From an uncultured Planctomycetota bacterium (lineage in GTDB: Bacteria; Planctomycetota; Planctomycetia; Isosphaerales; Isosphaeraceae), in assembly GCA_963737655.1 (NCBI GenBank), contig CAVTTN010000002.1, positions 2,400,001 to 2,464,000 of the forward strand: 64,000 bases of DNA, given 5' to 3'. The position numbers and the translations under genes are program-made. Below the pieces are notes generated by a model. It was not told where the DNA came from, searched no databases, and was given only the letters and a program-made list of their open reading frames with translations. The stretch's first letter is position 1. Every line of letters starts with the position of its first letter. This document shows positions 11,265 to 26,140 of this stretch, one piece after another.

Positions 11265-11441
11265 CGTCGAAGGGCCGAACGCCGCAATCCGCTTGAGGGT
11301 CTTGAAGGGCTTGTCGGTGGTCGAGCGATCGAACCACCGGGTCGCCTCGGACGTACTCGATCGAAGGGGGCTGGGGGCGGGACGTCGGTCAAGGTTCCCG
11401 CGATGGCCCCCCCTGCCCTTCTTCGCCGAGGACCACCGATC

Positions 11442-12353
11442 ATGAGACCCTCGCGACCGGCCGCCGCATCCCGAGGCATCACCCTGGTCGAGGTGGCCGT
11501 GGTGATGGGAGTCGTGCTGGTCCTTCTCCTGCTCGTGGCCATGGTCCTTCCCCGAGGCCGCGAGACGGCACGGTTGGTGGGCTGCAAGAAGAACCTGATG
11601 GAGATCGGCCAGGCCGTCGCCTATTACGACGGTGCCCAGGGGCATTTGCCGACCGTTCCCGCAATCGGCCAGGCGGGCGAGGCCCCGTTGCCGGCGATGC
11701 TGGGCTTGCTGGGACTGGGCGACTTCGGGCCGTTGAACGACCCGAAGCGGAAGGGGTTCGGGCGCCCGTCCGAGGCCCCTCCCGAACATTACATCTCGGC
11801 CTTCACCTGCCCGAGCGACCGCAGCGCCACCCGGGGCCGGTTCCCCGCGCCGGTCAGCTATCGGGCGAACGCCGGAGCGGACGCGGGCGGGGTGGACGGG
11901 CCGTTTGCTCCGGGGAAGGTCGTGAGCCTGAAGCAGGTCGAAGCGGCCGACGGCCAGGACTTCACCGCCGGGTTCGCCGAACGGCTCGTCGGCTCCGAAT
12001 CGGGCGAGCCCGACCCGATTCGCGATTACCGGCTCGCCCGAGGCCCGGTGGGCGACGACGGCTGCCCCGACGATTCGGATTCCGCCTGGGGCCTGGACGC
12101 CGGGTCCTCCTGGGCGCGGGTCGGCTGGGCGTGGTCCGTGTACAATCACACGCTCCGGCCCAACGGCTCCCCTTCGTGCGTGGCCAGGGACGGCAAGACC
12201 GCCCGGATCGGGGCCTCCAGCGAGCACGAAGGGACGATCCACGTCCTGATGCTCGGCGGGTCGGTCCGGGCGTTCTCGCCGACCGTCGATCCCGGGGTCT
12301 GGCGGAAGTTTGGCGCGATCGACGACTCCGGAAGGCTCAAGGCTTCGCCTTGA
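11442..12353 (+). CDS. DUF1559-domain prepilin-type protein
   Basis: RGITLVEV N-terminal cleavage motif, CKKNLMEIG, FTCPSD, YNHTLRPN and ASSEHEG. Confidence 0.85.
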   Translation: MRPSRPAAASRGITLVEVAVVMGVVLVLLLLVAMVLPRGRETARLVGCKKNLMEIGQAVAYYDGAQGHLPTVPAIGQAGEAPLPAMLGLLGLGDFGPLNDPKRKGFGRPSEAPPEHYISAFTCPSDRSATRGRFPAPVSYRANAGADAGGVDGPFAPGKVVSLKQVEAADGQDFTAGFAERLVGSESGEPDPIRDYRLARGPVGDDGCPDDSDSAWGLDAGSSWARVGWAWSVYNHTLRPNGSPSCVARDGKTARIGASSEHEGTIHVLMLGGSVRAFSPTVDPGVWRKFGAIDDSGRLKASP

Positions 12354-12816
12354 CCGCGGCCGGCTTCGGCATCCGGACGAGTTCCACGGCCTCGATGTTG
12401 CGGACCCAGCGGACGCGCATCGGGTCGCCCGGGATCAGGAGCTTGACCGGCCCCTGGTCCTTGTCCAGAGGCTTGCCGTTGCGTTCGAGGGCGAGAACGT
12501 ACCGCTCCCCCGAGTCGTCCATCGCCACGGAGGCGGCCGAGACGGCGGCCTGGTAGCCGTCGGTCCCCCGGATGATCAGGACGGCGTCGGACAGGGCGCG
12601 GAGGTCGCTCATGGCGGGCTTCGGCCCCTTCCACTGGTCCTCCAGGAGCGTGCGGAGCGGGACTCCTCGATACGAGGCCTCGCCGTCTCGCTCCTGGACC
12701 TTGATCTCGACTTTCTTCTCGATCTTCGCGAGGGCGGCGGGGTCGAACTTCAAGGGTTCGACCTGCGCGGGGGCGTCGGCCGAGAGCAGGGCCAGGGTCA
12801 TCGCGAAGGCGATCAT
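12337..12816 (-). CDS. Secreted protein with a molybdopterin-oxidoreductase-like (MsrP-type) domain
   Basis: Signal peptide; YRGVPLRTLL, GTDGY and NGKPL...GPVKLLIPGD..RWVRNI. Confidence 0.75.
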   Translation of the reverse strand: MIAFAMTLALLSADAPAQVEPLKFDPAALAKIEKKVEIKVQERDGEASYRGVPLRTLLEDQWKGPKPAMSDLRALSDAVLIIRGTDGYQAAVSAASVAMDDSGERYVLALERNGKPLDKDQGPVKLLIPGDPMRVRWVRNIEAVELVRMPKPAAVKAKP

Positions 12817-12928
12817 CAGCGGTTCCTTTCGCAGGGAGACAACGGGGTGGACAGGGGGATTGGGCTCGGCCTACGATCGTAGCCGCTCCGGCCCGAGGGC
12901 GGGGAGTGCCTCGGAGTGCTGAGCGTGG

Positions 12929-12949
12929 TTGGTGCGTTTCATGCACCCT
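12929..12949. repeat. Degenerate single REP-like unit (TTGGTGCGTTTCATGCACCCT)
   Basis: One mismatch to the unit seen at 27361, 39091 and 53992/54109. Confidence 0.7.
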
Positions 12950-12972
12950 CGATTGGTTCCCTGGAGGCGGGG

Positions 12973-13629
12973 ATGGGACGACGACCGGCGTTGATCTTTG
13001 ATTTTGGGAATGTGATTGCCCATTTCGATTTCTCGATCGCCGGGGCCCGACTGGGCGAGCCTCTGGGCATGGCGGGATCGGCGTTCATTGAGCATGTTCG
13101 TGCGCTGGGACTTGCTCAAGTCCTCCGAAAGTTGGAGAGCGGCCAGATCACGGGGGAGGTCTTCAGTCGCGCGGTCCTGGATATGGCCGGGCTGGACCTT
13201 TCTCACGAGCAGTTTGTTGCCGCCTGGGTGGATATCTTCTCGTTGAACGAGCCGGTGGCCCGCTTGATCCGGGGGTTGAAGGCGAAGGGGTACCCGTTGG
13301 TGCTCGGGTCGAACACCAATGACCTCCACTTCACGTTCTTCCGGGAGAAGTTCGCCGAGGCCCTGTCGCCGTTCGATCGCCTGGTGGTTTCGTTCGAGGT
13401 CGGCCACGTCAAGCCCGCGAGGGAGTTCTACCTCGCCTGCGCCGAGGCTGCCGAGGTTCCTCACGGGGATTGCGTCTTCATCGACGACATGGAGGAAAAC
13501 GTGGAAGGGGCCCGCGCCGCGGGCCTGGGAGCGGTCCACTATCGCGACCTGCCGTCGTTGCGGGCGGATCTCCTGGCACTCGGCGTCGAATTGCCGGACG
13601 ACCACCAAGAATCCTGGGCGGCTCGGTAG
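12973..13629 (+). CDS. HAD-family phosphatase (YihX-like)
   Basis: LIFDFGNV, GSNTN, VGHVKP and FIDDMEENVEGA. GGAGG RBS upstream. Confidence 0.92.
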   Translation: MGRRPALIFDFGNVIAHFDFSIAGARLGEPLGMAGSAFIEHVRALGLAQVLRKLESGQITGEVFSRAVLDMAGLDLSHEQFVAAWVDIFSLNEPVARLIRGLKAKGYPLVLGSNTNDLHFTFFREKFAEALSPFDRLVVSFEVGHVKPAREFYLACAEAAEVPHGDCVFIDDMEENVEGARAAGLGAVHYRDLPSLRADLLALGVELPDDHQESWAAR

Positions 13630-13647: not shown

Positions 13648-13731
13648 CGAAACGAGTAGGTCCGACTTCAGTCGGGCCTCCAAGAATCCCCTTTTTTGTA
13701 GGCCCGACTGAAGTCGGACCTACTCGTTTCG
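13648..13731. repeat. GTAG-type REP doublet (32-bp perfect inverted repeat)
   Basis: CGAAACGAGTAGGTCCGACTTCAGTCGGGCCT (13648-13679) and its exact reverse complement (13700-13731), between convergent genes. Confidence 0.85.
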
Positions 13732-13915: not shown

Positions 13916-14710
13916 TCAGCGGAGGATCGGCTGGTAGACGCCGGACATGCTCACGACGTTGCTCGTCTGCGCGACCGCGAGGATTTGATTGATCGGGAGG
14001 AGTCCTTCGACCGTCCCGGTCGTCGCGTCGATGTTCTGGACCTGCATCCCCAGCGCCTCGAGCTGGGCGGCGAAGGCGTTCGGGTCGCCCGAGGACCGGA
14101 GGTCCACGCCCACGGAGCTTCCGACCACTTCCAGGCGGCTGCTGGCCGAGGCGATCGACGAGGAGCCGGTGGACTGGAGGTACAGGCTGGCGAGATCCTG
14201 CCCGGCCTTGGCGAGCGGCCCGTTCTTGAGGTCGGTCAGGTCGCTGGAAGTCGGCACGAAGGATGACCCTGCGGGAGTGGAGGAGGAGGCCGAATCGAGC
14301 GAGGAGGCGGTGGTCGAGGAGGTCAAGACGGTGGTGGCGGCCGGGGTGGTGGAAGTGGTCGTGGCGGCGGTCGTGGTCGGGCTGGTGGTCGGGGTCGTGG
14401 TCGGGGTCGTGCTCGGGCTGGTGGTCGGGGTCGAGGCGGCGGTCGGCCTCAGGGCGGCGAAGTGGGCGGCGTGGGCCTGCTGGCGGGCCGCCGTCAGGGC
14501 GAGCTGGTGAGCGTGGCGGGCCTGGGTGGCCTCCAGGCGATGCTCGCGCTGAGCCAGGGCCTTTTCGTGGGCGCGTTCGACGGCCTGCTGATGGGCCTCG
14601 ACGACCGCCTCATGATGGGCCGCCACCGCGGCGGCCGACGGCATCACGCGCTCATCGAGTCCTTCGAGGCCGGGGCGGAGCTGACGATCGGTGCGGTGGA
14701 GGCGAGTCAT
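13916..14710 (-). CDS. Secreted protein: planctomycete export motif, His/Ala-rich helix, Thr/Ser linker and stand-alone subtilase propeptide-like domain
   Basis: RPGLEGLDERVMPS N-terminal motif. The C-terminal ~115 aa align with residues ~51-172 of the 15452..26140 product, including identical KNGPLAKAGQDL. Confidence 0.85.
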   Translation of the reverse strand: MTRLHRTDRQLRPGLEGLDERVMPSAAAVAAHHEAVVEAHQQAVERAHEKALAQREHRLEATQARHAHQLALTAARQQAHAAHFAALRPTAASTPTTSPSTTPTTTPTTSPTTTAATTTSTTPAATTVLTSSTTASSLDSASSSTPAGSSFVPTSSDLTDLKNGPLAKAGQDLASLYLQSTGSSSIASASSRLEVVGSSVGVDLRSSGDPNAFAAQLEALGMQVQNIDATTGTVEGLLPINQILAVAQTSNVVSMSGVYQPILR

Positions 14711-15451
14711 CGGGCCACTCCTTGTCGCAGAACAGGACGGTGAGGCCGAGAAGTTTCCTCGGGCGAGGTCCCGCGCCGGGGACACAATCCCTCAAGGGCG
14801 CGAACATCGTTAGATGCGAGAGCATAAGGCAATCGGCGTGCCAAGATTCCCGGGGCTTGCCGGGGTCGGTCCGTCCGTGAGATCGTGGTCGGGGGCCGGC
14901 CGGCCCGCCCGATGGGTTCGTCCCAGGCGGCAGGGATCGCGCAACCGGAGGGTCCACCGAGGTTTTCCCGGGCAGGCCGGTTGACATCGCCGCCCCAGGG
15001 GCGAAATTGGACTCGATGCACGGATCGCGCCCCGCGCCGAAAGGGAATTCGCCGACCCACCTCGCTGCCCTTCCCGCTCCGTCTCGAATTTCCCTTCGGA
15101 TTCCGCTTGACTGCGACCTGACCGCCCGTAATGATTGAGTGCATGCATGGAGCCAATCATCCTTGGTATCCATTCCCGGGCCGTTCCCGTCGTCGTACTC
15201 GTCCCTGAGAGGGAGGGGCGTCGAGGGGCCAGTCCGGGCCTGGGCCGGAGGTCGATGGCCGACGATCGCGATGCCCCGGGGTCGGGGCGGCCTCTCGGCG
15301 GAGGTCTGTCGAGGTCAGGTCGAGCACGATGAGGCGCCGATTCGGGATGGCTTGATTTTTCGAGAGAGAAGAGATCACCCTCGTCCTTCTGAGATGGCCC
15401 CGGCCCCCGCCGGGGCGGGCCTCGGGGCGGGGCTAACCGGGGAGCCTGTCG

Positions 15452-18400
15452 ATGGGCAGCTTCAATGACAAGGGACGGGACCGCCGCTCGCCTCGGCGAC
15501 GAGGCCCGAACGATCGCGATCGACGGCGGCAGGCCCTCCCCATCCTCGAGCCGCTCGAGAACCGCCGGTTGCTGGCGGCTCCGGGCTACGGTCCGCCGAC
15601 GTGGGTGCCCACCACCACCAACATCGCCGACGTCAAGAACGGGCCCCTGGCCAAGGCCGGGCAGGACCTGATCTCGCTGTATCAGGAGTATCAGACCTAC
15701 CTGGCCAACGACGGCGTGGCCGGTCAGTTCCACTCCAAGCAGGCCGGGCGCCTGGAGATCCAGGGCACCAACGTCGGCGTGGACGTGAACGTCTACGGCG
15801 ACCTGAACGCCTACGCCCTGGCGGCGGCCCGCCTGGGGATGAAGATCGGCGCCATCGACACGGCGACCGGGATCGTCGAGGGCGTCGTCCCGATCGCGCA
15901 GCTGCCGGCCCTGGTGAACGTGGCCGGGACCGTCGGCGTGGCGCCGATCTACATGCCGTTCACGCACTCCGTCGGCTCGGCGACCGACCAGGGCGAGGCG
16001 GTCATGCAGGCCAACACGGCCAAGACGACCTACGGGGTCGACGGCACGGGCCAGACCGTCGGCGTCCTGTCGGACTCGGTCAGCCAGGTCGGCGGAGGGA
16101 TCGCCGACTCGGTGAAGACCGGCGACCTGCCGGCGGGCGTGACGGTCCTCCAGGACGGCCCGGCCGGCTCGACCGACGAAGGCCGGGCGATGCTGGAGGA
16201 GGTCCACGACATCGCCCCGGGGGCCAAGCTCCAGTTCACCACGGCCGACGGCGGCGAGGTCGCCTTCGCCAACGGCATCCGCTCGCTGGCCTCGGCCGGC
16301 TCGACGATCATCGCCGACGACATCGGCTATCCCACCGAGCCGTTCTTCCAGGACGGCGTGGTCTCCCAGGCCGTGGACCAGGTGGCCGCGCAGAACATCA
16401 CCTACCTGAGCGCCGCGGGCAACACGGCCGACAGCGGCTACCAGTCGGTGTTCCGGGGGGCCAACGGCACGGTCACCGGCGTCGGCTCGGGCCGGTTCAT
16501 GAACTTCGATCCCAACGGCGGGACGGCGTTGACCATCGGGATCAACGTCTACCGGCCCAGCCAGATCACGTTCATGTACGACAACCCGTTCTACACCACC
16601 AACGGGGTGACCTCGGACCTGGACATCTACGTCCTGGACGCGAACAACAACGTGGTGGCGTCGGGGACGACCAATAACATCGCCACGCAGACCCCCTTCG
16701 AGATCCTCCAGCCGGTGCAGCCGGGCCTGTACAAGGTGGCGATCAAGGTCAACGCGGGCAGCCCGGACGTCGGCCGCGTGGCCTTCTACGAGCCGGGGGA
16801 CGGCGGGTTCTCGGTGGACCACCAGTACGGCTTCGCCGGGGGGACGAACTACCCGACGACCAACGGCCACCCGACGGCGAACGGGGCCCTGGGGATCGGG
16901 GCGGTCCCCTGGTTCAACGCGCCCCCGTTCGACACCCTGCCGAGCTACTCCAACGAGCCGTTCAGCTCGTTCGGTCCTTCCGAGATCGTCTTCAGCCCGA
17001 CCGGGGCGCCCCTGGGGACGACCCAGGTCCGGCAGAAGCCCGACGTCTCCGGCCCCGACGGGATCGACACCAGCTTCTTCCCGGTCCCGGCGGCCCAGAA
17101 CACGCTCTCGACGCTGAATCCGCCGTTCCCGCAGTCCTCGGCGCCTCCGTACCCCGGGGAGCCGGCGACGGTCACCGGCGAGCAGGCCACGACGACGGAG
17201 CTGGACGGCAACGCGCTGCCGAACTTCTTCGGCACCTCCGCCGCGACGCCCAACGTCGCGGGGGTCGTGGCCCTGATGAGGCAGTTCTCGCCCTCCACGA
17301 CCAACGCGGACATCTCCTCGGCCCTGAAGTCCACGACGATCCCCCTGGACGGCACCCCGGCCGGGTCGTGGGGGGCGCAGTCCGGCTACGGGCTGGTCCA
17401 GGCGACCCGGGCGATCGCCGCTTTGGACACCTTCCACGTCACGGCGACCGACCCGCCGAACCTCTACGCCGAGACCTCGGCCCCCAGCCAGATCGTCTTC
17501 GCCTTCAACGGCGCCGTGGACCCCGGGACGCTCCAGCCGGGCGACCTGACCTTCCTCGGCACCCCGGCCGGGGTGACCGTCACGGTCGGCCAGCCCTACC
17601 TCGACCCGGCCAACAACAACGTCGTCCACTTCCCCCTGACCTACAACATCGCCGCCGGCGCCAAGGCCAACGGCGGCTACTACTACCAGCTCAACGCCAA
17701 GTCGATCACCTCGGCCGCGAACAAGTCCGTCGCCCTGTATAGCGGGGCCTTCGGGATCGCCGACACGATCGCGCCGAAGGTCACCAACGTCACGATCAAC
17801 GGCCGGTACATCAACATCCAGTTCAGCGAGGCGATGAACCCGGCGACGATCAACAAGACCGACATCTACCTGGAGAGGACCGGTTCCTCGGGCGTCTTCG
17901 GCAGCCCGACGAACGTGAACCTGAACCTCGACCCCCGGGCGATCGTCGCCTACAACGCGGCCACGAACACCGCGGTCCTGGACCTCAGCCAGCTCGACCA
18001 GTCCGAGCTGCCGACGGACCATTACGCCCTGATCGTCACCGACGCGACGACCGACGTGGTGGGCAACCGGCTCGACGGCGAGTTCTCCGGCCTGTTCCCC
18101 TCGGGCAACGGCGTGGAGGGCGGGAACTTCGTCGATGACCTGGGCGTCCGCACGCTGACTCCCCCCCAGATCCTCAGCCTCCAGCTCGCCCCGGCGTACG
18201 ACAGCGGGATCAAGGGGGACCAGAACACCAACAACCAGCTCCCGGCGTTCGTCGGCCAGGTCCAGGCGAACTTCCCCGGGACGGCCGGCGGCCTGACCGT
18301 CGTGGCCGAGTTCAACGCGCTCCACCAGGGGACCTTCGACCTGGCCCAGGGGGCCGGCGGCCGGGGGTTCACCGGCAACTTCGACGTCCAGGTGACGACC

Positions 18401-21400
18401 GACGCCCAGGGCCGGTTCGCCTTCGTCGCCCCGACGGCCCTGCCCAACGGCTTCCAGACCGTCCGGGTGGTGGTCGTCGGCGCCAGCGATTCGCCCCCCC
18501 TGCCCGGCCTCTCCTCGCTCCTGGAGAACTCGTTCCGGATCGTCACGAACAGCCCCCTGATCACGACCGACGGCTCGTCGATCCAGCAGGGCCAGAAGGT
18601 CCCGACGCTGACCAACGTGACGCTCGACGTGCTCGACCCGGTCCTCCCCTCGGACCTGGGCAACCCCCTGGCGGTGCCCACGCAGTTCTCCGTGCCCGCG
18701 CTGGACCCGGCCACGGCGGACAACATCAGCAACTACTCGCTGGTGAACCTCGGCTCGGATAACGCGATCGGCGGGACCACGTCCGACACCGCCGACAAGG
18801 ACTATTCGAGCTACATCACGTCGGCGAACTTCGTGACGACCGGGCAGAGGACCGCGACGAACGACCCGTTCCTGGGCCAGATCAACCTGACGTTCGCCCC
18901 GGGCCTGCCCGCGGGGCGCTACCTGGTGATCGCCCACCGTCCTCAGCCGGGCTACCAGGGGATCACCGACGCGGCCGGCAACCAGATCGACGCCGACCTG
19001 AACACCCCGGGCGCCCAGGACTTCGTCCTCGTCGTGGACGTGAACCCAACGCCCGCCTACATCACCGGCTTCTACGCGGTGACGCCCGACAGCCTGGGCG
19101 GGGCGCCGACGCTGACCGGCCCCAAGTCGTACTACGAGATCCCGGTGCCCGGCAACACGCCCCGGGCCGTCGCCCCGCCGAACCAGTTCTACATCGACTT
19201 CTCCAGCCCGTTGAACACGGCGGCGGACTACACCAACGACGTCGAGCTGATCCGCTCGGCCAACTCCCCCACGGCCGCCTCCGACGGCGACTTCGGGACC
19301 GACCCGACCTACACCAGCGGAGTGGGCTACACCCGCGTCCCGGGCGTCACGGTCACCCTCGTCAACTCGATCCTGGGCGCCACCTTCGGGACGCCCGGGT
19401 ACAAGAACCGGCTGGTCGTCTCGATCGCGCCGGGGACGAGCCTCCCGGCCGACCACTATCGGTTCTTCATCCCCAATGCGGTCCTGTCCAACGGTCAGGA
19501 CACGAGGATCTTCGACCAGTTCGGCAACCAGCTCGACGGCGAGTTCCTCGGGACGCCCAGCATCTCGGGCAACGGGACGTATGAGGACCTGCTGCCGACC
19601 GGGCAGTACCGGCCCGACGACCTCTCGGGCGACGGGACGCCGGGCGGCTCGTTCGAGACGGGCTTCATCGTCGTGCCCAACGGCAACATCATCTATGCCC
19701 GGCCGGACTACGTGGACGACCCGTTCCTGACCTCCGACGACCCCGACGGCAGCCTCGCCCACCCCTACCCCGTCCTGGCGCCGGAGGCCGTGGCCAACGC
19801 GGCCAACGGCGGCGACCTGAACAGCGTGGCGAACTTCGGGACCGGGTTCAACTCGGTGTACGACCGCTCGGGCAACGGCCACTTCGACCGCTCGGCCCTG
19901 TACGCGGCCGACGTGCTCTCGGCCAAGGGCCCCGTGGTGGTCGTCGCCCTCCCGGCGCTGAACGACAAGAGCAAGACGTTCGTCCTCCAGGCCCCCTCGG
20001 GCAGCAACCCGGTGGCCAACGACGGCTCGGCGACCGTCCCGTTCAACACCGACCTGGTGTTCGCCCCGGGGTCGGTGCTGAAGCTGAGCAACGCGGCCCT
20101 GTTCGTCCAGAACCAGGGCAGCTCGATCCAGGTGATCGGCGGGCCGAACCCGGCCGATCAGGTCGTCTTCACCTCGTACGCCGACGATTCGGTCGGCGGC
20201 GACACCAACGGAGACGGCGCCGACAGCTCGCCCCTGGGCGGCGACTGGGGCGGGATCGTCCTGAGGAACTTCGACGACACCTCCAACGGAGGCCGTCCGA
20301 TCCCCGAGGCCCCGGGCCCCGTCGATCCCCTGAGGAATCACCTGGGCGTCTCGGGCGAGGACGACGCGCTGTCGTACTTCAACTTCGCGCAGGTCAAGTA
20401 CGCCGGAGGGGCGGTCCCGCAGACGATCGGGTTCCGGTTCGACGCGATCACCAACTTCAACTCGCGGCCGGCGATCTCGAACATCGTCATCTCGCAGACC
20501 GGCGGGACGAACTCGCCCCAGGGCGCGATCTCCGGCGACGTGGACTCGTTCCGCGAGGACAACCTCGCCCGGGGCATCCTGGTCCGCCGAGCCACCCTGA
20601 TCAACAACAGCCTCAACGGCATCTACGTCCGGGCCGAGCTGACCGGAGTGGCCGAGCCGACCGACGCGATGACCTACCCGGATAACCCGATCACCCTGGG
20701 CGGCCAGCAGAACTACTCGTTCTTCGCCCCGGTCCCCTACGTCCTGGTGGCCCGCCTCGTCCTCGGCGAGACGCTCCAGCAAGACACCAACGGCAAGACC
20801 GTCGCGAACACCGACCGCTACTATTTCCAGCCCGGCACGGTCTTCAAGTTCCAGAGGGGCGCGGGGATCGACGTCAACAACCCGGGCGCCAGCCTCAACA
20901 TCGGCGACCGGACGTACATCAACGAGTTCGACGCCAACCCCAACCTCGCGCCGACCGACGCCGGCTTCAAGGCCCCGACCGTCGGCGACGCCCAGGTGGT
21001 CTTCACCTCCCTGTTCGACGACAACGCCACGACCTCGTATACCGACCCGAACACCGGCGTGGCCTCGACGATCGTGGCGCCGATCGACACGGACAACGGC
21101 GGGGCGGTGAACCTGCCGACGCCCGGCAACGTGCCGGCCCTGGCCCGCTGGGGCGGCATCGCGATCATCTCCGGGGCGATCTCCGTGATCGACGAGGCGG
21201 ACTTCCGCTACGGGGGCGGCTCGGTCAACTCGGCCAACGGGACGATCCCCCAGCGCGACGTCCTGGACTTCGAGCAACCCGGAGGAGGCCAGCTCACCGG
21301 GACCGGGGCGGGCGGGCAAATCGGCCTCACGCTCTTCGGCCAGCAGATCATCAAGGCCCTGGGCACCACGGCCTACACCACGAACAACACGTTCGAGGAC

Positions 21401-24400
21401 AACGCCCAGGCGCCGATGTCGATCGACCCCAACGGCCTGCTCGCCGCCGACCCGCTCCGCCCGCTCAAGTCGGGCAACCCGTTCTTCCGCGGCAACGTCT
21501 TCCTCCGCAACGACCTCAACGGCCTGGAGGTCCTGCCGAGGTTCCAGGGCGTGACCGGCTACAACCCCAATCTGCGGGTGGACTCGGTCTGGGACGACAC
21601 CGACCTGACCTACATCCTCCGCGGCACGATCAGCCTGGCGGGCGCCGAAATCCGCAACATGTACCCCACGCCGGACTCCACCCAGTTCACCGACGAGCTG
21701 AAGCCGGCGATCACCCTGACGATCGAGTCCAGCCTGCCCGGGACGCTCCTGGCCAACGGCCAGACCATCGGCCTGCCCGGCGAGTCGAACATCGTCAAGC
21801 TCCTGAACACCACGGCGCCGGTGGGCGACGGCGTCAACGGCGGCCAGGGGATCACCTCCGACGAGCAGGGCGGGGCCGGGTTCCTCGTCGGCGTGGACGA
21901 CACGGTCGACCCGCCGGCCGACCCCTTGACCGACCCCGGCTTCTTCAGCCAGATCCGCATCCTCGGCATCGGCGGCAACGCGACGACCGGCCAGCAGAGG
22001 GTGCCGGTGATCATCACCTCGCTCCACGACAACACCGTGGGGAGGACCGTCCGGGGCGTGGACCAGTACGCCGCCATGTTCGGCAACTCCACCGCCCCGG
22101 CCGCGGGCGACGGCGGCGTGATCGAGTTCGGCGCCAACTCGCTGTCGGACTACAACCTGCTCGACCCCCGGGACGGCAGCCTGATCGACAACGCCGACAT
22201 CAAGTACATCACCCGGGTCGAGCAGCAGGGCGGCGGCTGGGTCTACACCAACACGGGGAACAACCGGGTCGACAAGATCGGCAACACGCCCGCCACTCAG
22301 TTCAACACGGCCAAGGCGATGACGATCTCCGACTCGAACTTCTCGAACTTCAGCCAGGTCGGGTTCATCGCCCACCCCTCCGGCGCCACCCAGATCGACC
22401 TGCTGGCCGCGCCGGTGGGCACCTTCCAGCTCCCGGCCCGGGATACGATCCTCCACGGCCAGCCGACGCTCACCTACTTCGTCAACGACACGTTCTCGAA
22501 CATGCCGGTGGGCGTGAGGATCAACGCCGACGGCGGCGCGGACCTCAACGGCCAGACGCCCTCCGAGGCCGTCTTCCTCAACAACACGTTCTACAACGAC
22601 CCGGTGTCCGTCCACCTCGACGCGCCGATCGCCACCGGGCTGAACAACTTCTCGCATAACAACGTCCTGTTCATGGACAACATCTTCGCCAACTCCTCGA
22701 CCGCGGCGATCCAGATCGTCGGCCAGGACTACGGCAGCCAGGGCCAGTACAACTTCTTCAGCGGGGACACCACCGACGTCTCGCTGACCAGCGACTCCGG
22801 CTTCTCCAACAACGAGCCGGTCACCGGCAACCCCGCGTTCCTCGACGCGGCCAACGGCAACTTCCAGCTCCTGCCCAACTCCGACGCGATCGACGCCTCG
22901 AGGTCGGAGCTCGGGCCGACGAACCTCGGCCTGTCGCTCCTGCCGATCGCCGACCAGCAGCTCAACTCCACCGGGGGCGTCCGCAACGCCACCGGCCGGA
23001 CGAACTTCTCCGGCGGCCTCCGCGACGTCTCCAAGCCCGGCGACATCGTCACCCTGCCCGGCTATCCGCTCCACTTCAACGACGGGGCCGGCAACTTCTA
23101 CGACCAGTGGGTCCCGGCCATCGCCGGGACGCCCGGCGCCATCCCCGGGCCGACGACCAACGCCGGCGGCGTGTTCAGCTACACCCCGATCACCGGCGAG
23201 CGCGACCAGGCCGGCTACCTCCGCGTCGACGACCCGAACGTGGCCAACGTCGGGTTCGGCAGCCGGCCGTTCTTCGACATCGGGGCGTATGAATACGTCC
23301 AGCTCAACCCGCCCCACATCACCAACGTGATCGCCACCCTGCCCAACCCGGCCGTCCCGGGCGGCGAGGCCGACACCCTGATCTACACCGCCGGCCAGGT
23401 CCTCGGCACGAACCAGACGCCCGACCAGCTCGTGCTCTTCTTCGACCAGAGGCTGGACCCGACGACCGTCAACAACATGACGATCCTGCTCCAGGCCTCC
23501 GGCGGCGACGGGATCTTCGACAACGGCAACGACAAGTTCATCTCGCTCTCGGGCAAGCTGGTCTACGACCCGGTGGCCAAGACGATCACCATCAACCTGG
23601 CCAGCAGCAACCTGACCCTGGCCAACGACACCTATCGCCTGATCGTCTACGGCTCGGGCTCCAACGTGATCCGCAATCCCCAGGGCCTCGCCCTGGACGG
23701 CGAGAACACCGTCGGCGACCAGCCGAACCAGCCGACCCTGCCGCTGCCCTCCGGCGACGGCTTCCCCGGCGGCAACTTCTTCCTGACCTTCACGGTGGAC
23801 AATCATCCCCCGGCGATCGTCGGGGGGACGTTCAACCTCGCCCCGTCCAGCGATACCGGCATCGGCGGCGACCGGATCACCGACCAGAACCGCCCGAACT
23901 TCGTCGGCCGGATCACCGACGTCGCCCCGCCGGTCAACCCCCTGCTGAACGAGACGGTGTATATCGACGTCTCGACCAAGGGGAACGGCGTCTTCGACCG
24001 CCTCGGCGTGGCCGTGGGCAAGACCGACGCCCTCGGCAACTTCATCGCCACCTACGTGCCGGGCCAGGCCCCCCTGCCCGACTCGGCCTATAGCGTCGGG
24101 CCCGACGGCATCCTCGGCACGGCCGACGACTCGGGGTACTCCGTGGCCCGGGTCCGCATCGTGGACCAGAGCGGCAACGTCTCCAGCCTCAGCGACGCCA
24201 ACGCCCTGCTGTCGTTCGTCGTCGATACGACCGGCCCGAGGGTCACCGGCAGCTCTCCCCTGCCGAACTCCCAGCCGCCGGTGACCGCCGGGACGATCCC
24301 GGTGGCCCTGGTCGTCAGCGAGAACATCAACCCGGCGACCTTCACGGCGCAGTCGGTCAAGGTGACCCGCTCCGGGCCCGACGGGGTCCTCGGCACGGCC

Positions 24401-26140
24401 GACGACGTCTCGGTGGCCGTCGATCCGGCGAGCTTCTCGATCGAGAACCTGCACTCGACCAGCGGCTCGGAGATCCTCCACTTCAACATCATCGGGGCCA
24501 CGGCCAGCGACCTCTACCAGGTCACCCTCCTGGGCACCGGCACCTCCGCGGTCCAGGACATCGCCGGCAACGACCTCGACGGCGAGTTCGGCGGGACGTT
24601 CCCCAGCGGCAACGGCACGCCGGGCGGGGACTTCAACCTCACGTTCATCGTCTACAACCCGGCCAGCACCCACCTGATCTTCGTCGGCCAGACCGCGACC
24701 ACGCCGACGGCCACCCCGGGCACCCGCGCCAACCCGTACCCGACGATCACCGCCGGCATGAACGCCGCCAACCCCGGCGACATCGTGGCCGTCCTGCCCG
24801 GCGTGTACACCGAGAACGTGACCCTGAAGTCGCTCGTCCGCCTGCTCTCGGCCGACAACTCCAGCACCGACTCCCATTTCGTCCCCGGCCTGGCCCTGCA
24901 GACCGTCATCCGCGCCCCGGCCAACAACGGGGCGCCGACCACGACGGTGACCGGGACGAACCTCTACAGCATCCCGGCCCTCTCGACCGAGATCGCCGGC
25001 TTCACCATCGCCAGCCCGCTCAACGGCGACACCGCCCACGGCCCGATCCTCGACGGCTCGGTCGGCCTGCTCCTGAGCAACTCCGACGTCCTGGTGGACA
25101 AGAACTACTTCGTCGACAGCTACATCGGCGCGGGCGTGGGCTTCAACGGGGCCAACGCCGCGGCCCCTCGCTTCGAGAGCGACGGGTTCATCGGCAACAT
25201 CACGGGCCTGGTCGTCAACGCCGGGGCCACCACGTCGTTCCGCAACAACCAGGACGTGGAGATCGCCAACAACGACTTCGCGTTCAACACGTACGGCTAC
25301 TTCCAGATCACCACGGCGACGACCGGGCCGATCCTGGCCGACGTCGTCAACAACATCTTCTGGCAGAACGCCGACCGCTCGGGATTCCGCAACGGCACGG
25401 CGATCCTCACCAACGTCCCGGGCCGGATGACGGTCCAGTACAACCTGTTCTCCGGCAACGGCCCGAGCGATTCCAGCCCGGCCGACGACACGGTGAACGT
25501 GGGCGGCGGGTTCGACCCGACGGTGCTGGGCACCACGCCCGACGCCTTCGGCAACATCACCGGGGCCCCGGCCTTCGCCCTGCCCGTGGACCCCAGGCCC
25601 GACGGCGACGGCCCCGGCAACTTCTTCCTCGCCGCCAACTACGACCTGACCGCCTCCTCGGCGGCCATCGACGAGGCCCTGAACGCGGACGCACCGATCG
25701 TGGACTTCCGCTATCGAGGCCGGATCGCCATCCCGGGCCACGGCCGCACGGGCACCGGCCCGGCGGACATCGGGGCGTTCGAGTACCTCGGCACCTACGG
25801 CGTCGGCTCCGGGACGGCCTTCAATGCCAGCTCGGTCCGGGTGATCGGCCCTCCGGGCGTGCCCAACCAGTCGGCCTCGTCCGGCTCGTCCTCGTCCGGC
25901 GGGACGACCAGCTCGGGCGGGACCGGGACGACCAGCGGCGCGGGCACGACCTCCGGCGGGACGACCAGCTCGGGCGGGACCACCACGGCCGGGGGACGAG
26001 GGCCGACCACGACGACCTCGCCCACCACGACAACCCCCAAGGTGGGCAAGAAGAAGGCCAAGGTGGTCAAGCACAAGGTCGCCAAGAAGAAGCCCAGCGG
26101 ACCCCTCGGCCTGATCAGCAAGTTCCACAAGAAGCACTGA
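15452..26140 (+). CDS. Giant (3562 aa) secreted S8/S53-like subtilase-fold protease with Ig-like and beta-helix adhesin modules
   Basis: LEPLENRRLLA export motif; VGVLSDS, DEGRAMLEEVHDIAPGA, SAAGN and FFGTSAATP; repeated GNxLDGEF...SGNG..GG.F modules; PYPTI...PGVYTEN; DIGAYEY/DIGAFEY; S/T/G linker and Lys/His-rich tail. Strong GC3 bias in this frame. Confidence 0.93.
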   Translation: MGSFNDKGRDRRSPRRRGPNDRDRRRQALPILEPLENRRLLAAPGYGPPTWVPTTTNIADVKNGPLAKAGQDLISLYQEYQTYLANDGVAGQFHSKQAGRLEIQGTNVGVDVNVYGDLNAYALAAARLGMKIGAIDTATGIVEGVVPIAQLPALVNVAGTVGVAPIYMPFTHSVGSATDQGEAVMQANTAKTTYGVDGTGQTVGVLSDSVSQVGGGIADSVKTGDLPAGVTVLQDGPAGSTDEGRAMLEEVHDIAPGAKLQFTTADGGEVAFANGIRSLASAGSTIIADDIGYPTEPFFQDGVVSQAVDQVAAQNITYLSAAGNTADSGYQSVFRGANGTVTGVGSGRFMNFDPNGGTALTIGINVYRPSQITFMYDNPFYTTNGVTSDLDIYVLDANNNVVASGTTNNIATQTPFEILQPVQPGLYKVAIKVNAGSPDVGRVAFYEPGDGGFSVDHQYGFAGGTNYPTTNGHPTANGALGIGAVPWFNAPPFDTLPSYSNEPFSSFGPSEIVFSPTGAPLGTTQVRQKPDVSGPDGIDTSFFPVPAAQNTLSTLNPPFPQSSAPPYPGEPATVTGEQATTTELDGNALPNFFGTSAATPNVAGVVALMRQFSPSTTNADISSALKSTTIPLDGTPAGSWGAQSGYGLVQATRAIAALDTFHVTATDPPNLYAETSAPSQIVFAFNGAVDPGTLQPGDLTFLGTPAGVTVTVGQPYLDPANNNVVHFPLTYNIAAGAKANGGYYYQLNAKSITSAANKSVALYSGAFGIADTIAPKVTNVTINGRYINIQFSEAMNPATINKTDIYLERTGSSGVFGSPTNVNLNLDPRAIVAYNAATNTAVLDLSQLDQSELPTDHYALIVTDATTDVVGNRLDGEFSGLFPSGNGVEGGNFVDDLGVRTLTPPQILSLQLAPAYDSGIKGDQNTNNQLPAFVGQVQANFPGTAGGLTVVAEFNALHQGTFDLAQGAGGRGFTGNFDVQVTTDAQGRFAFVAPTALPNGFQTVRVVVVGASDSPPLPGLSSLLENSFRIVTNSPLITTDGSSIQQGQKVPTLTNVTLDVLDPVLPSDLGNPLAVPTQFSVPALDPATADNISNYSLVNLGSDNAIGGTTSDTADKDYSSYITSANFVTTGQRTATNDPFLGQINLTFAPGLPAGRYLVIAHRPQPGYQGITDAAGNQIDADLNTPGAQDFVLVVDVNPTPAYITGFYAVTPDSLGGAPTLTGPKSYYEIPVPGNTPRAVAPPNQFYIDFSSPLNTAADYTNDVELIRSANSPTAASDGDFGTDPTYTSGVGYTRVPGVTVTLVNSILGATFGTPGYKNRLVVSIAPGTSLPADHYRFFIPNAVLSNGQDTRIFDQFGNQLDGEFLGTPSISGNGTYEDLLPTGQYRPDDLSGDGTPGGSFETGFIVVPNGNIIYARPDYVDDPFLTSDDPDGSLAHPYPVLAPEAVANAANGGDLNSVANFGTGFNSVYDRSGNGHFDRSALYAADVLSAKGPVVVVALPALNDKSKTFVLQAPSGSNPVANDGSATVPFNTDLVFAPGSVLKLSNAALFVQNQGSSIQVIGGPNPADQVVFTSYADDSVGGDTNGDGADSSPLGGDWGGIVLRNFDDTSNGGRPIPEAPGPVDPLRNHLGVSGEDDALSYFNFAQVKYAGGAVPQTIGFRFDAITNFNSRPAISNIVISQTGGTNSPQGAISGDVDSFREDNLARGILVRRATLINNSLNGIYVRAELTGVAEPTDAMTYPDNPITLGGQQNYSFFAPVPYVLVARLVLGETLQQDTNGKTVANTDRYYFQPGTVFKFQRGAGIDVNNPGASLNIGDRTYINEFDANPNLAPTDAGFKAPTVGDAQVVFTSLFDDNATTSYTDPNTGVASTIVAPIDTDNGGAVNLPTPGNVPALARWGGIAIISGAISVIDEADFRYGGGSVNSANGTIPQRDVLDFEQPGGGQLTGTGAGGQIGLTLFGQQIIKALGTTAYTTNNTFEDNAQAPMSIDPNGLLAADPLRPLKSGNPFFRGNVFLRNDLNGLEVLPRFQGVTGYNPNLRVDSVWDDTDLTYILRGTISLAGAEIRNMYPTPDSTQFTDELKPAITLTIESSLPGTLLANGQTIGLPGESNIVKLLNTTAPVGDGVNGGQGITSDEQGGAGFLVGVDDTVDPPADPLTDPGFFSQIRILGIGGNATTGQQRVPVIITSLHDNTVGRTVRGVDQYAAMFGNSTAPAAGDGGVIEFGANSLSDYNLLDPRDGSLIDNADIKYITRVEQQGGGWVYTNTGNNRVDKIGNTPATQFNTAKAMTISDSNFSNFSQVGFIAHPSGATQIDLLAAPVGTFQLPARDTILHGQPTLTYFVNDTFSNMPVGVRINADGGADLNGQTPSEAVFLNNTFYNDPVSVHLDAPIATGLNNFSHNNVLFMDNIFANSSTAAIQIVGQDYGSQGQYNFFSGDTTDVSLTSDSGFSNNEPVTGNPAFLDAANGNFQLLPNSDAIDASRSELGPTNLGLSLLPIADQQLNSTGGVRNATGRTNFSGGLRDVSKPGDIVTLPGYPLHFNDGAGNFYDQWVPAIAGTPGAIPGPTTNAGGVFSYTPITGERDQAGYLRVDDPNVANVGFGSRPFFDIGAYEYVQLNPPHITNVIATLPNPAVPGGEADTLIYTAGQVLGTNQTPDQLVLFFDQRLDPTTVNNMTILLQASGGDGIFDNGNDKFISLSGKLVYDPVAKTITINLASSNLTLANDTYRLIVYGSGSNVIRNPQGLALDGENTVGDQPNQPTLPLPSGDGFPGGNFFLTFTVDNHPPAIVGGTFNLAPSSDTGIGGDRITDQNRPNFVGRITDVAPPVNPLLNETVYIDVSTKGNGVFDRLGVAVGKTDALGNFIATYVPGQAPLPDSAYSVGPDGILGTADDSGYSVARVRIVDQSGNVSSLSDANALLSFVVDTTGPRVTGSSPLPNSQPPVTAGTIPVALVVSENINPATFTAQSVKVTRSGPDGVLGTADDVSVAVDPASFSIENLHSTSGSEILHFNIIGATASDLYQVTLLGTGTSAVQDIAGNDLDGEFGGTFPSGNGTPGGDFNLTFIVYNPASTHLIFVGQTATTPTATPGTRANPYPTITAGMNAANPGDIVAVLPGVYTENVTLKSLVRLLSADNSSTDSHFVPGLALQTVIRAPANNGAPTTTVTGTNLYSIPALSTEIAGFTIASPLNGDTAHGPILDGSVGLLLSNSDVLVDKNYFVDSYIGAGVGFNGANAAAPRFESDGFIGNITGLVVNAGATTSFRNNQDVEIANNDFAFNTYGYFQITTATTGPILADVVNNIFWQNADRSGFRNGTAILTNVPGRMTVQYNLFSGNGPSDSSPADDTVNVGGGFDPTVLGTTPDAFGNITGAPAFALPVDPRPDGDGPGNFFLAANYDLTASSAAIDEALNADAPIVDFRYRGRIAIPGHGRTGTGPADIGAFEYLGTYGVGSGTAFNASSVRVIGPPGVPNQSASSGSSSSGGTTSSGGTGTTSGAGTTSGGTTSSGGTTTAGGRGPTTTTSPTTTTPKVGKKKAKVVKHKVAKKKPSGPLGLISKFHKKH

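Follow-up and report, generated by a model that had tools for sequence, protein, structure and literature searches.

In a 64,000-nucleotide stretch of genome from an uncultured Isosphaeraceae bacterium (phylum Planctomycetota; GenBank assembly GCA_963737655.1, contig CAVTTN010000002.1, positions 2,400,001 to 2,464,000; hereafter, the window), a small minus-strand gene faces the gene for a giant subtilase-fold protein, and both encode the same propeptide-like domain. We propose, with a probability of about 0.6, that the small gene product is a trans-acting, product-like competitive propeptide inhibitor of the giant surface subtilase, a reading drawn from sequence comparison and structural modeling. 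A free, probably exported copy of the propeptide would inhibit this protease in trans, and perhaps its paralogue too. In the modeled complex, the sheet of the free domain packs on two surface helices of the catalytic domain, its final four residues sit in the active-site cleft, and an extra N-terminal helix grips the beta-domain that interrupts the catalytic domain. Since P1 is already the end of the chain, with nothing left to cleave off, the free copy could re-block enzyme that has shed its own propeptide, as a safety catch. An export motif and a Thr/Ser linker would deliver and display it in the compartment of the protease, and family members that are bare domains without the motif would inhibit likewise in the cytoplasm. 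The mechanism would be independent of gene adjacency, which in the source genome reflects a local insertion.

Relation of the small protein to the protease propeptide

The last 115 amino acids (aa) of the small protein align with residues 50 to 169 of the 3562-aa protein, with 49 of 120 positions identical (41%), 74 similar, and an E value of 2e-25. This agrees with an earlier reading made without database searches (the sequence-only reading), which had matched the C-terminal domain of the small protein to the segment preceding the catalytic domain of the protease. Its observation of a shared 12-mer, KNGPLAKAGQDL, encoded with four synonymous codon differences (CCG/CCC, CTC/CTG, GAT/GAC, and CTC/CTG), also held up. 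Across the whole domain, the same codon is used at 32 of 48 identical residues, versus 31.6 expected from codon usage; the similarity is therefore old and has been kept at the protein level. Recent duplication or gene conversion between the two genes was rejected because synonymous sites are saturated, and the ratio of nonsynonymous to synonymous substitution rates (dN/dS) of 1.1 for the pair is an artefact of that saturation.

The small protein ends where the sequence-only reading had placed its end, at the point at which the protease runs on into SVGSAT: PILR and the stop codon are in register with PFTH|SVGSAT. This is likely the maturation junction of the protease, a site deduced from the alignment and predicted to follow His172 or a residue near it. 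Three copies of the domain occur in the genome, in the small gene, in the adjacent protease, and in the pro-region of a second, frameshifted protease on the same contig. Sequence searches beyond these relatives returned little: the small protein gave no match of note in NCBIfam and no Pfam family at E values up to 0.1 (PF07595 and PF05922 included), a profile search of PDB sequences with the domain gave nothing below an E value of 0.46, and neither the Pfam nor the PDB-sequence search linked the domain to Inhibitor_I9 (PF05922) or to solved I9 chains.

Predicted fold and modeled complex

Structure prediction supports a subtilase propeptide fold for the shared domain, as the sequence-only reading had expected. 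The AlphaFold2 model of the small domain has a predicted local distance difference test (pLDDT) score of 91.9. Compared by VIA-align with 48,161 representative chains, it retrieved subtilase prodomains or the free mimic POIA1 in all of the first 15 rows (Z 9.5 to 6.6), led by the Tk-SP pro-region (Z 9.5, 3.1 Å, 88 residues aligned), the PCSK9 prodomain (Z 8.8), and the subtilisin pro-region (Z 8.0); POIA1 itself aligned at Z 7.0 (2.5 Å, 67 residues). Foldseek searches with the domain gave no match at an E value of 0.001 or better, the top hit being the Tk-SP pro-region at 6e-3. Among Atlas look-alikes, the named family was the CspB prodomain family PF18425 (score 0.93), and the look-alike clusters included proteins of 114 to 143 aa.

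We modeled the complex from a 17-row alignment of the catalytic domain and a 51-row alignment of the free domain comprising stand-alone copies only. It scored 0.92 in three runs, versus 0.00 for the best of three controls, with contact agreement of at least 88% and partner pLDDT of at least 88. In a calibration that is roughly valid for this pair, 116 of 157 solved pairs attained the score mark, as against 2 of 215 mismatched ones. The modeled interface involves residues 71 (Glu), 118 to 123, 149 to 152 (Asn), 422 to 424 (Ser), and 233 to 249 (the insert) of the catalytic domain and residues 18 to 23, 104 to 110, and 112 to 115 of the partner. The last strand and PILR of the free domain are predicted to contact the catalytic Glu, the DIGYPT strand, the Asn of AAGN, and the Ser of GTS, placing the C-terminal tail among the catalytic residues, where the sequence-only reading had anticipated it. 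The extra N-terminal helix (AKAGQD) contacts the inserted domain in the same model. Judged by this model, which resembles complexes already solved, the free copy still looks like a fitting propeptide.

Stand-alone copies across the family

A profile of the domain matched 99 of the 121 genomes of the source family. A single-query search recovered it from 0 of 24 sampled genomes of the other families of the class; 5 of 300 other genomes of the phylum were matched weakly (E values of 3e-9 to 5e-5, in frames of 516 to 1735 aa), and the search for related loci added two weak Pseudomonas-type matches. Stand-alone frames, the small gene included, number 51 in at least 42 of the 121 family genomes, with up to three copies per genome. 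They were taken from the short frames among the matches listed, and 50 of about 200 matches fell outside that set, which makes 51 a lower bound. The usual build is an export motif, a charged segment, a Thr/Ser/Pro linker, and a terminal domain. A loose regular expression found the motif in 40 of the 51 members, in a few cases at the wrong place. Three of the 51 frames carry two or three domains in tandem, and four members (G004, G024, G133, and G134) are bare domains without an export motif.

In a wider protein library, 1249 clusters matched the domain at an E value of 0.001. Among the best 150 of these 1249, 105 end at the domain with no catalytic match (some are perhaps fragments at contig ends), another 32 are proteases, and the remaining 13 are mostly cut protease starts or short extensions; tandem domains occur in 20 of the 105. 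None of the best 150 fuses the domain to an unrelated enzyme, and the possibility raised in the sequence-only reading that the domain is a generic module on many non-protease proteins was not borne out. Two library proteins of atypical build, P0073 and P0102 (1327 and 945 aa), contain seven and three weak propeptide-like repeats, respectively.

The end of the free chain is conserved in position. A stop codon falls three residues past the conserved Pro112 in 36 of the 51 stand-alone frames, and two to four residues past it in 42; at the same point, the proteases run on into the conserved start of the mature domain. The penultimate residue is Leu in 17 of the 36. All ten close stand-alone pairs compared gave dN/dS values of 0.14 to 0.41, although these pairs overlap, are not independent, and include some linker. 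The domain is under purifying selection across the family.

Gene linkage, co-occurrence, and origin

A HAD hydrolase gene precedes the protease, often with a DUF1559 gene ahead of it, in 23 loci of a first set and 20 of 20 loci of a second. The gap between the HAD gene and the protease held a propeptide copy in 0 of these 43 relatives, among them the congeneric genomes G001, G002, and G003; G002 has two stand-alone copies elsewhere in its genome. Likewise, the flanks retrieved for the 50 other stand-alone copies, which reached 4 kb or more on each side in 35 cases, contained a catalytic domain in 0 of 50. The divergent pair that the sequence-only reading had proposed to look for across the family is not a conserved unit, and because the slot is empty in the 43 relatives and the 50 other copies are unlinked, the face-to-face pair is a local insertion of the small gene.

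The same gap in three relatives contains other small divergent genes that have an export-type motif and lack the propeptide domain (L066:13695-14282 in G003, L067:13525-14236 in G015, and L039:6873-7715 in G028). At the C-terminus of each product, a short motif occurs twice, GGYY..TP.G..LL in two of them and a similar one in the third; the three are possibly a second type of small partner.

A catalytic-domain match is present in 39 of the 42 genomes with a free copy. The remaining three genomes have completeness values of 60%, 74%, and 89%, and in the 89% genome a protease start lies at the end of a contig. Among genomes with completeness of 90% or more in which the catalytic match is weak or absent, 0 of 10 carried a free copy.

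Phylogenetic trees of about 120 columns were poorly resolved, and the placement of the small gene itself was unreliable. Both trees contain one large group of diverged free copies, the G002 free copies group with the protease of their own genome, and the G113 copy falls among proteases. The 85-row tree requires 6 label changes, of which 3 are forced by starred branches (one of them from a mislabeled broken copy), and the 42-row subset tree requires 3, with 1 forced. On the subset, an approximately unbiased (AU) test under LG+G4 gave p 0.023 against grouping every free copy in a single clade; in trials of the test, this model led to false rejection of 5 of 71 true clades. All three copies in the source genus are nearest to the propeptide of their own genome (45, 53, and 49%, versus 41, 49, and 41% for the next), and the own-genome propeptide ranks first for 5 of 15 copies tested. 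These sequence relationships suggest repeated birth or co-evolution of the free copies. We word repeated origin as a suggestion because the trees are weakly resolved, one forced change comes from a mislabeled copy, and the AU-test model is simple.

Taken more broadly, and tentatively, at a little under even odds, these genes may encode a class of free subtilase propeptides in bacteria that spans the family and has escaped annotation. Members would have been born more than once from the local protease pro-region, grafted on an exported stalk, and diversified into single, tandem, and cytoplasmic forms. From unlinked genes, they would control a giant His-less (Glu/Asp/Ser) surface subtilase in trans, with the extra helix clamping its inserted domain.

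The two genes and their surroundings

The minus-strand open frame at the small gene spans 14785 to 13916. The frame given in the sequence-only reading is real, but its GTG start at 14785 gives way to the ATG at 14710, the likely start, which has AAGGAG nine bases upstream; the G+C content at third codon positions is 0.89. The export motif that had been credited to the small protein is visible by eye as a variant, RPGLEGLDERVMPS, although it matches no Pfam model. The PF07595-type motif is described as a planctomycete cell-surface signal in PMC8567305. The small protein is probably exported, and its Ala/His/Glu/Arg-rich segment is probably helical.

The giant protein matches PF00082 at 41.6 bits (cut-off 21.8), and a fold search returned a subtilase-like catalytic domain with CspB as the best match (4i0w; E value 6e-12). 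Its export motif is sub-threshold for PF07595, at 15.9 bits against a cut-off of 25.5 (E value 0.011). The Asp-His-Ser triad of S8 subtilases is absent from all 17 aligned sequences, with positions equated by motif: Glu243 replaces the usual His and a Ser the usual Asp, and these residues, Asp289/Asp290, Asn324, and Ser596 are invariant in 17 of 17. The Glu lies in DEGRAM, the Ser in GTS, and the Asp-Asp on the strand that corresponds to subtilisin 124-125. Because the triad His is missing and the Asp position is Ser, protease activity is presumed from conservation. The two known catalytic triads are described in PMC11593635. The length of 3,500 to 3,900 aa is kept across the family, in which 96 of 121 genomes have a strong catalytic-domain match. 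Within window 15968-26140, most of the 2,900-residue tail of the protein has no more than a few weak Pfam matches.

Only two catalytic-domain loci occur in the genome, and both are proteases. The second, frameshifted one (G000:C2:3796480-3806471) has a PKD-like repeat tail and lies downstream of another frameshifted exported repeat protein; the frameshifts in both may be assembly errors. The features of the window are collected in Table 1. The promoter-like element occurs upstream of the protease genes in 42 of 46 relatives and once in the source genome, and its near-palindromic TGA.TGC.TGCATG motif is a candidate conserved operator overlapping the -10 box. A DUF1559 (prepilin-like) gene and the HAD hydrolase gene form a conserved block upstream of the protease (window 11403-13629), with HAD in 43 relatives. 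Between the converging HAD and small genes is a pair of GTAG-headed palindromic repeats (window 13655-13725), of which about 180 similar copies occur in the genome and which we take to be repetitive extragenic palindrome (REP)-like.

Table 1. Coordinates of the small gene, the giant protease gene, and associated features in the window
Feature	Position	Strand	Remarks
HAD hydrolase gene	12916..13629	+	Conserved upstream neighbor of protease
Stand-alone propeptide-like gene	13916..14710	-	264 aa; export-type motif, His/Ala/Glu/Arg-rich segment, Thr/Ser linker, propeptide-fold domain
Propeptide-fold domain of small protein	13916..14260	-	From alignment, predicted fold, and complex model
Thr/Ser-rich linker	14261..14446	-	62 residues, 40/62 T or S
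Ala/His/Glu/Arg-rich segment	14447..14635	-	Generic part, common to at least one unrelated exported protein of the same genome
Planctomycete export-type motif of small protein (RPGLEGLDERVMPS)	14636..14677	-	Residues 12-25, by eye in sequence
Conserved promoter-like element of protease	15107..15160	+	TTGAC-17-ATGAT, then TGA.TGC.TGCATG
Giant 3562-aa subtilase-fold protein	15452..26140	+	Export motif, propeptide, catalytic domain, long immunoglobulin (Ig)-like/other tail
Built-in propeptide of protease	15602..15967	+	Residues 51-172
Catalytic domain with inserted beta-domain	15968..17431	+	Invariant Glu243 for usual His, Asp289/Asp290, Asn324, Ser596

Alternative explanations

Several observations weigh against trans inhibition. 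Linkage of the small gene to the protease is absent in relatives, and no free copy was seen in many of the 96 genomes with the protease, of which at least 39 have one. The ten protease-free genomes belong to only four genera, so that the co-occurrence, although in keeping with a functional tie, is weak as a sign of one. The terminal residue of the free copies, which would occupy the active site, is variable (R in 8, N in 8, S in 5, K in 4, and others in 11 of the 36), the export motif of the small protein falls short of the Pfam model, and the protease itself departs from the usual triad at both His and Asp. Because propeptide-subtilase complexes have been solved many times and are well represented among known structures, the score of the complex may stem from resemblance to them, as opposed to binding of the free copy.

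Perhaps the free domain binds the matured protease via the propeptide interface but uses its helical segment and Thr/Ser stalk to hold the enzyme at the cell surface, position it there, or keep it there in latent form. In most members, a long N-terminal stalk does separate the domain from the export motif, the model adds an extra grip on the inserted domain, and the prodomain of CspB, the best fold match of the catalytic domain, stays bound (PMC3567191). We nonetheless regard such docking as unlikely: the bare members G004, G024, G133, and G134 have neither stalk nor motif, the tandem forms of G141 and G143 have hardly any of either, the sequence shows no membrane anchor, and the conserved C-terminal length fits occupation of the active site.

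A trans-acting folding chaperone for the catalytic domain, the other half of what the sequence-only reading had suggested, has precedent, since subtilase propeptides are intramolecular chaperones (PMC6993865) and the free I9 proteins of yeast and Pleurotus are reported as chaperones (bioRxiv 10.64898/2026.05.05.722857). We consider this role improbable because the protease still has a propeptide of its own at the loci examined and many protease-bearing genomes lack a free copy, from which it also follows that a free copy is not needed for folding in general; the copies, being unlinked, are in addition probably not co-regulated with it.

Equally improbable in our judgment is a shield against the subtilases of competitors, predators, or kin that leaves the cell's own enzyme alone. 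The lack of linkage, the tandem domains, and the presence of as many as three copies in one genome would suit such a role, as would the failure of most divergent members to have the own-genome propeptide as their closest relative. Against it, the ten well-assembled protease-free genomes have no copy, and in the source genus every copy is closest to the propeptide of its own genome.

We give very little weight to reuse of the fold without a protease link or to a decayed, truncated protease duplicate, the latter with remnants downstream of 13916 in the terms of the sequence-only reading: the inverted position beside the protease would fit a local duplication, and several family genomes have frameshifted protease reads, but nothing catalytic lies beyond 13916, the only two catalytic-domain loci are the proteases themselves, synonymous sites are saturated at 41% protein identity, the N-terminal half of the small protein is missing from the protease, and decay is ruled out because the stop position is fixed among the 51 stand-alone frames and dN/dS stays below 0.45 in relatives.

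Comparison with known systems

The concept of free propeptide inhibitors is already known: propeptide mimics inhibit subtilases in fungi, plants, and apicomplexans (PMC6993865; bioRxiv 10.64898/2026.05.05.722857). Stand-alone inhibitors of MEROPS family I9 include Pleurotus POIA1, the yeast proteinase B inhibitor PBI2, Arabidopsis SPI-1, Toxoplasma MIC5, and Plasmodium SUB1-ProM (PMC6993865), as well as Trichoderma TrI9 (bioRxiv 10.64898/2026.05.05.722857). Like the small protein, they are encoded by a separate small gene and have a propeptide fold and no catalytic domain; the modeled position of the C-terminus of the small protein in the active site is the one that would be expected of such an inhibitor, and SUB1-ProM also adjoins subtilase genes (PMC6993865). 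The inhibitors named in these sources are eukaryotic and have no clear sequence similarity to the cognate propeptide, whereas the small protein is bacterial and 41% identical to it. It also differs from them in its additional N-terminal helix, its Thr/Ser stalk and export-type motif of planctomycete kind, the tandem forms in its family, and the lack of a PF05922 match. In our best reading, the small protein would work like an I9 stand-alone inhibitor while not being a sequence member of PF05922.

A bacterial propeptide analogue encoded beside its protease is found in Streptococcus pyogenes, where Spi adjoins SpeB (PMC2873492). In that system, the target is a C10 cysteine protease, the fold is unrelated, and the linkage is conserved, whereas here the target is a serine subtilase and the genes are mostly unlinked; conserved adjacency of the Spi/SpeB type was found in neither the 43 relatives examined at the slot nor the 50 other copies. 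The prodomains of Tk-SP (3afg), PCSK9, subtilisin BPN', and CspB (4i0w) share the fold of the small domain but are parts of zymogens. Clostridium CspB, like the giant protease, has a domain inserted in its catalytic domain.

Siezen and co-workers reportedly described, in 2007, sedolisin-like subtilases in which Glu replaces the catalytic His and a beta-strand bears the acid. We take the giant protease to belong to this subgroup, presumably the 'Peptidases_S53_like' entry of CDD. The giant protease likewise has the Glu (DEGRAM), the Asp-Asp on a strand, and the Ser (GTS); unlike the group, it keeps the S8-type Asn oxyanion residue and matches PF00082. We know of no free propeptide for the sedolisin-like group.

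Our search of literature largely outside subscription journals found no free subtilase propeptide from planctomycetes or other bacteria. If our proposal is true, the small protein would be a ready-made specific inhibitor for an unstudied surface protease of 3,500 to 3,900 aa with a non-standard catalytic set that most family genomes keep. The characterized free subtilase-propeptide inhibitors in the literature covered are all eukaryotic, and a bacterial family descended by sequence from the cognate propeptide would show how such inhibitors arise.

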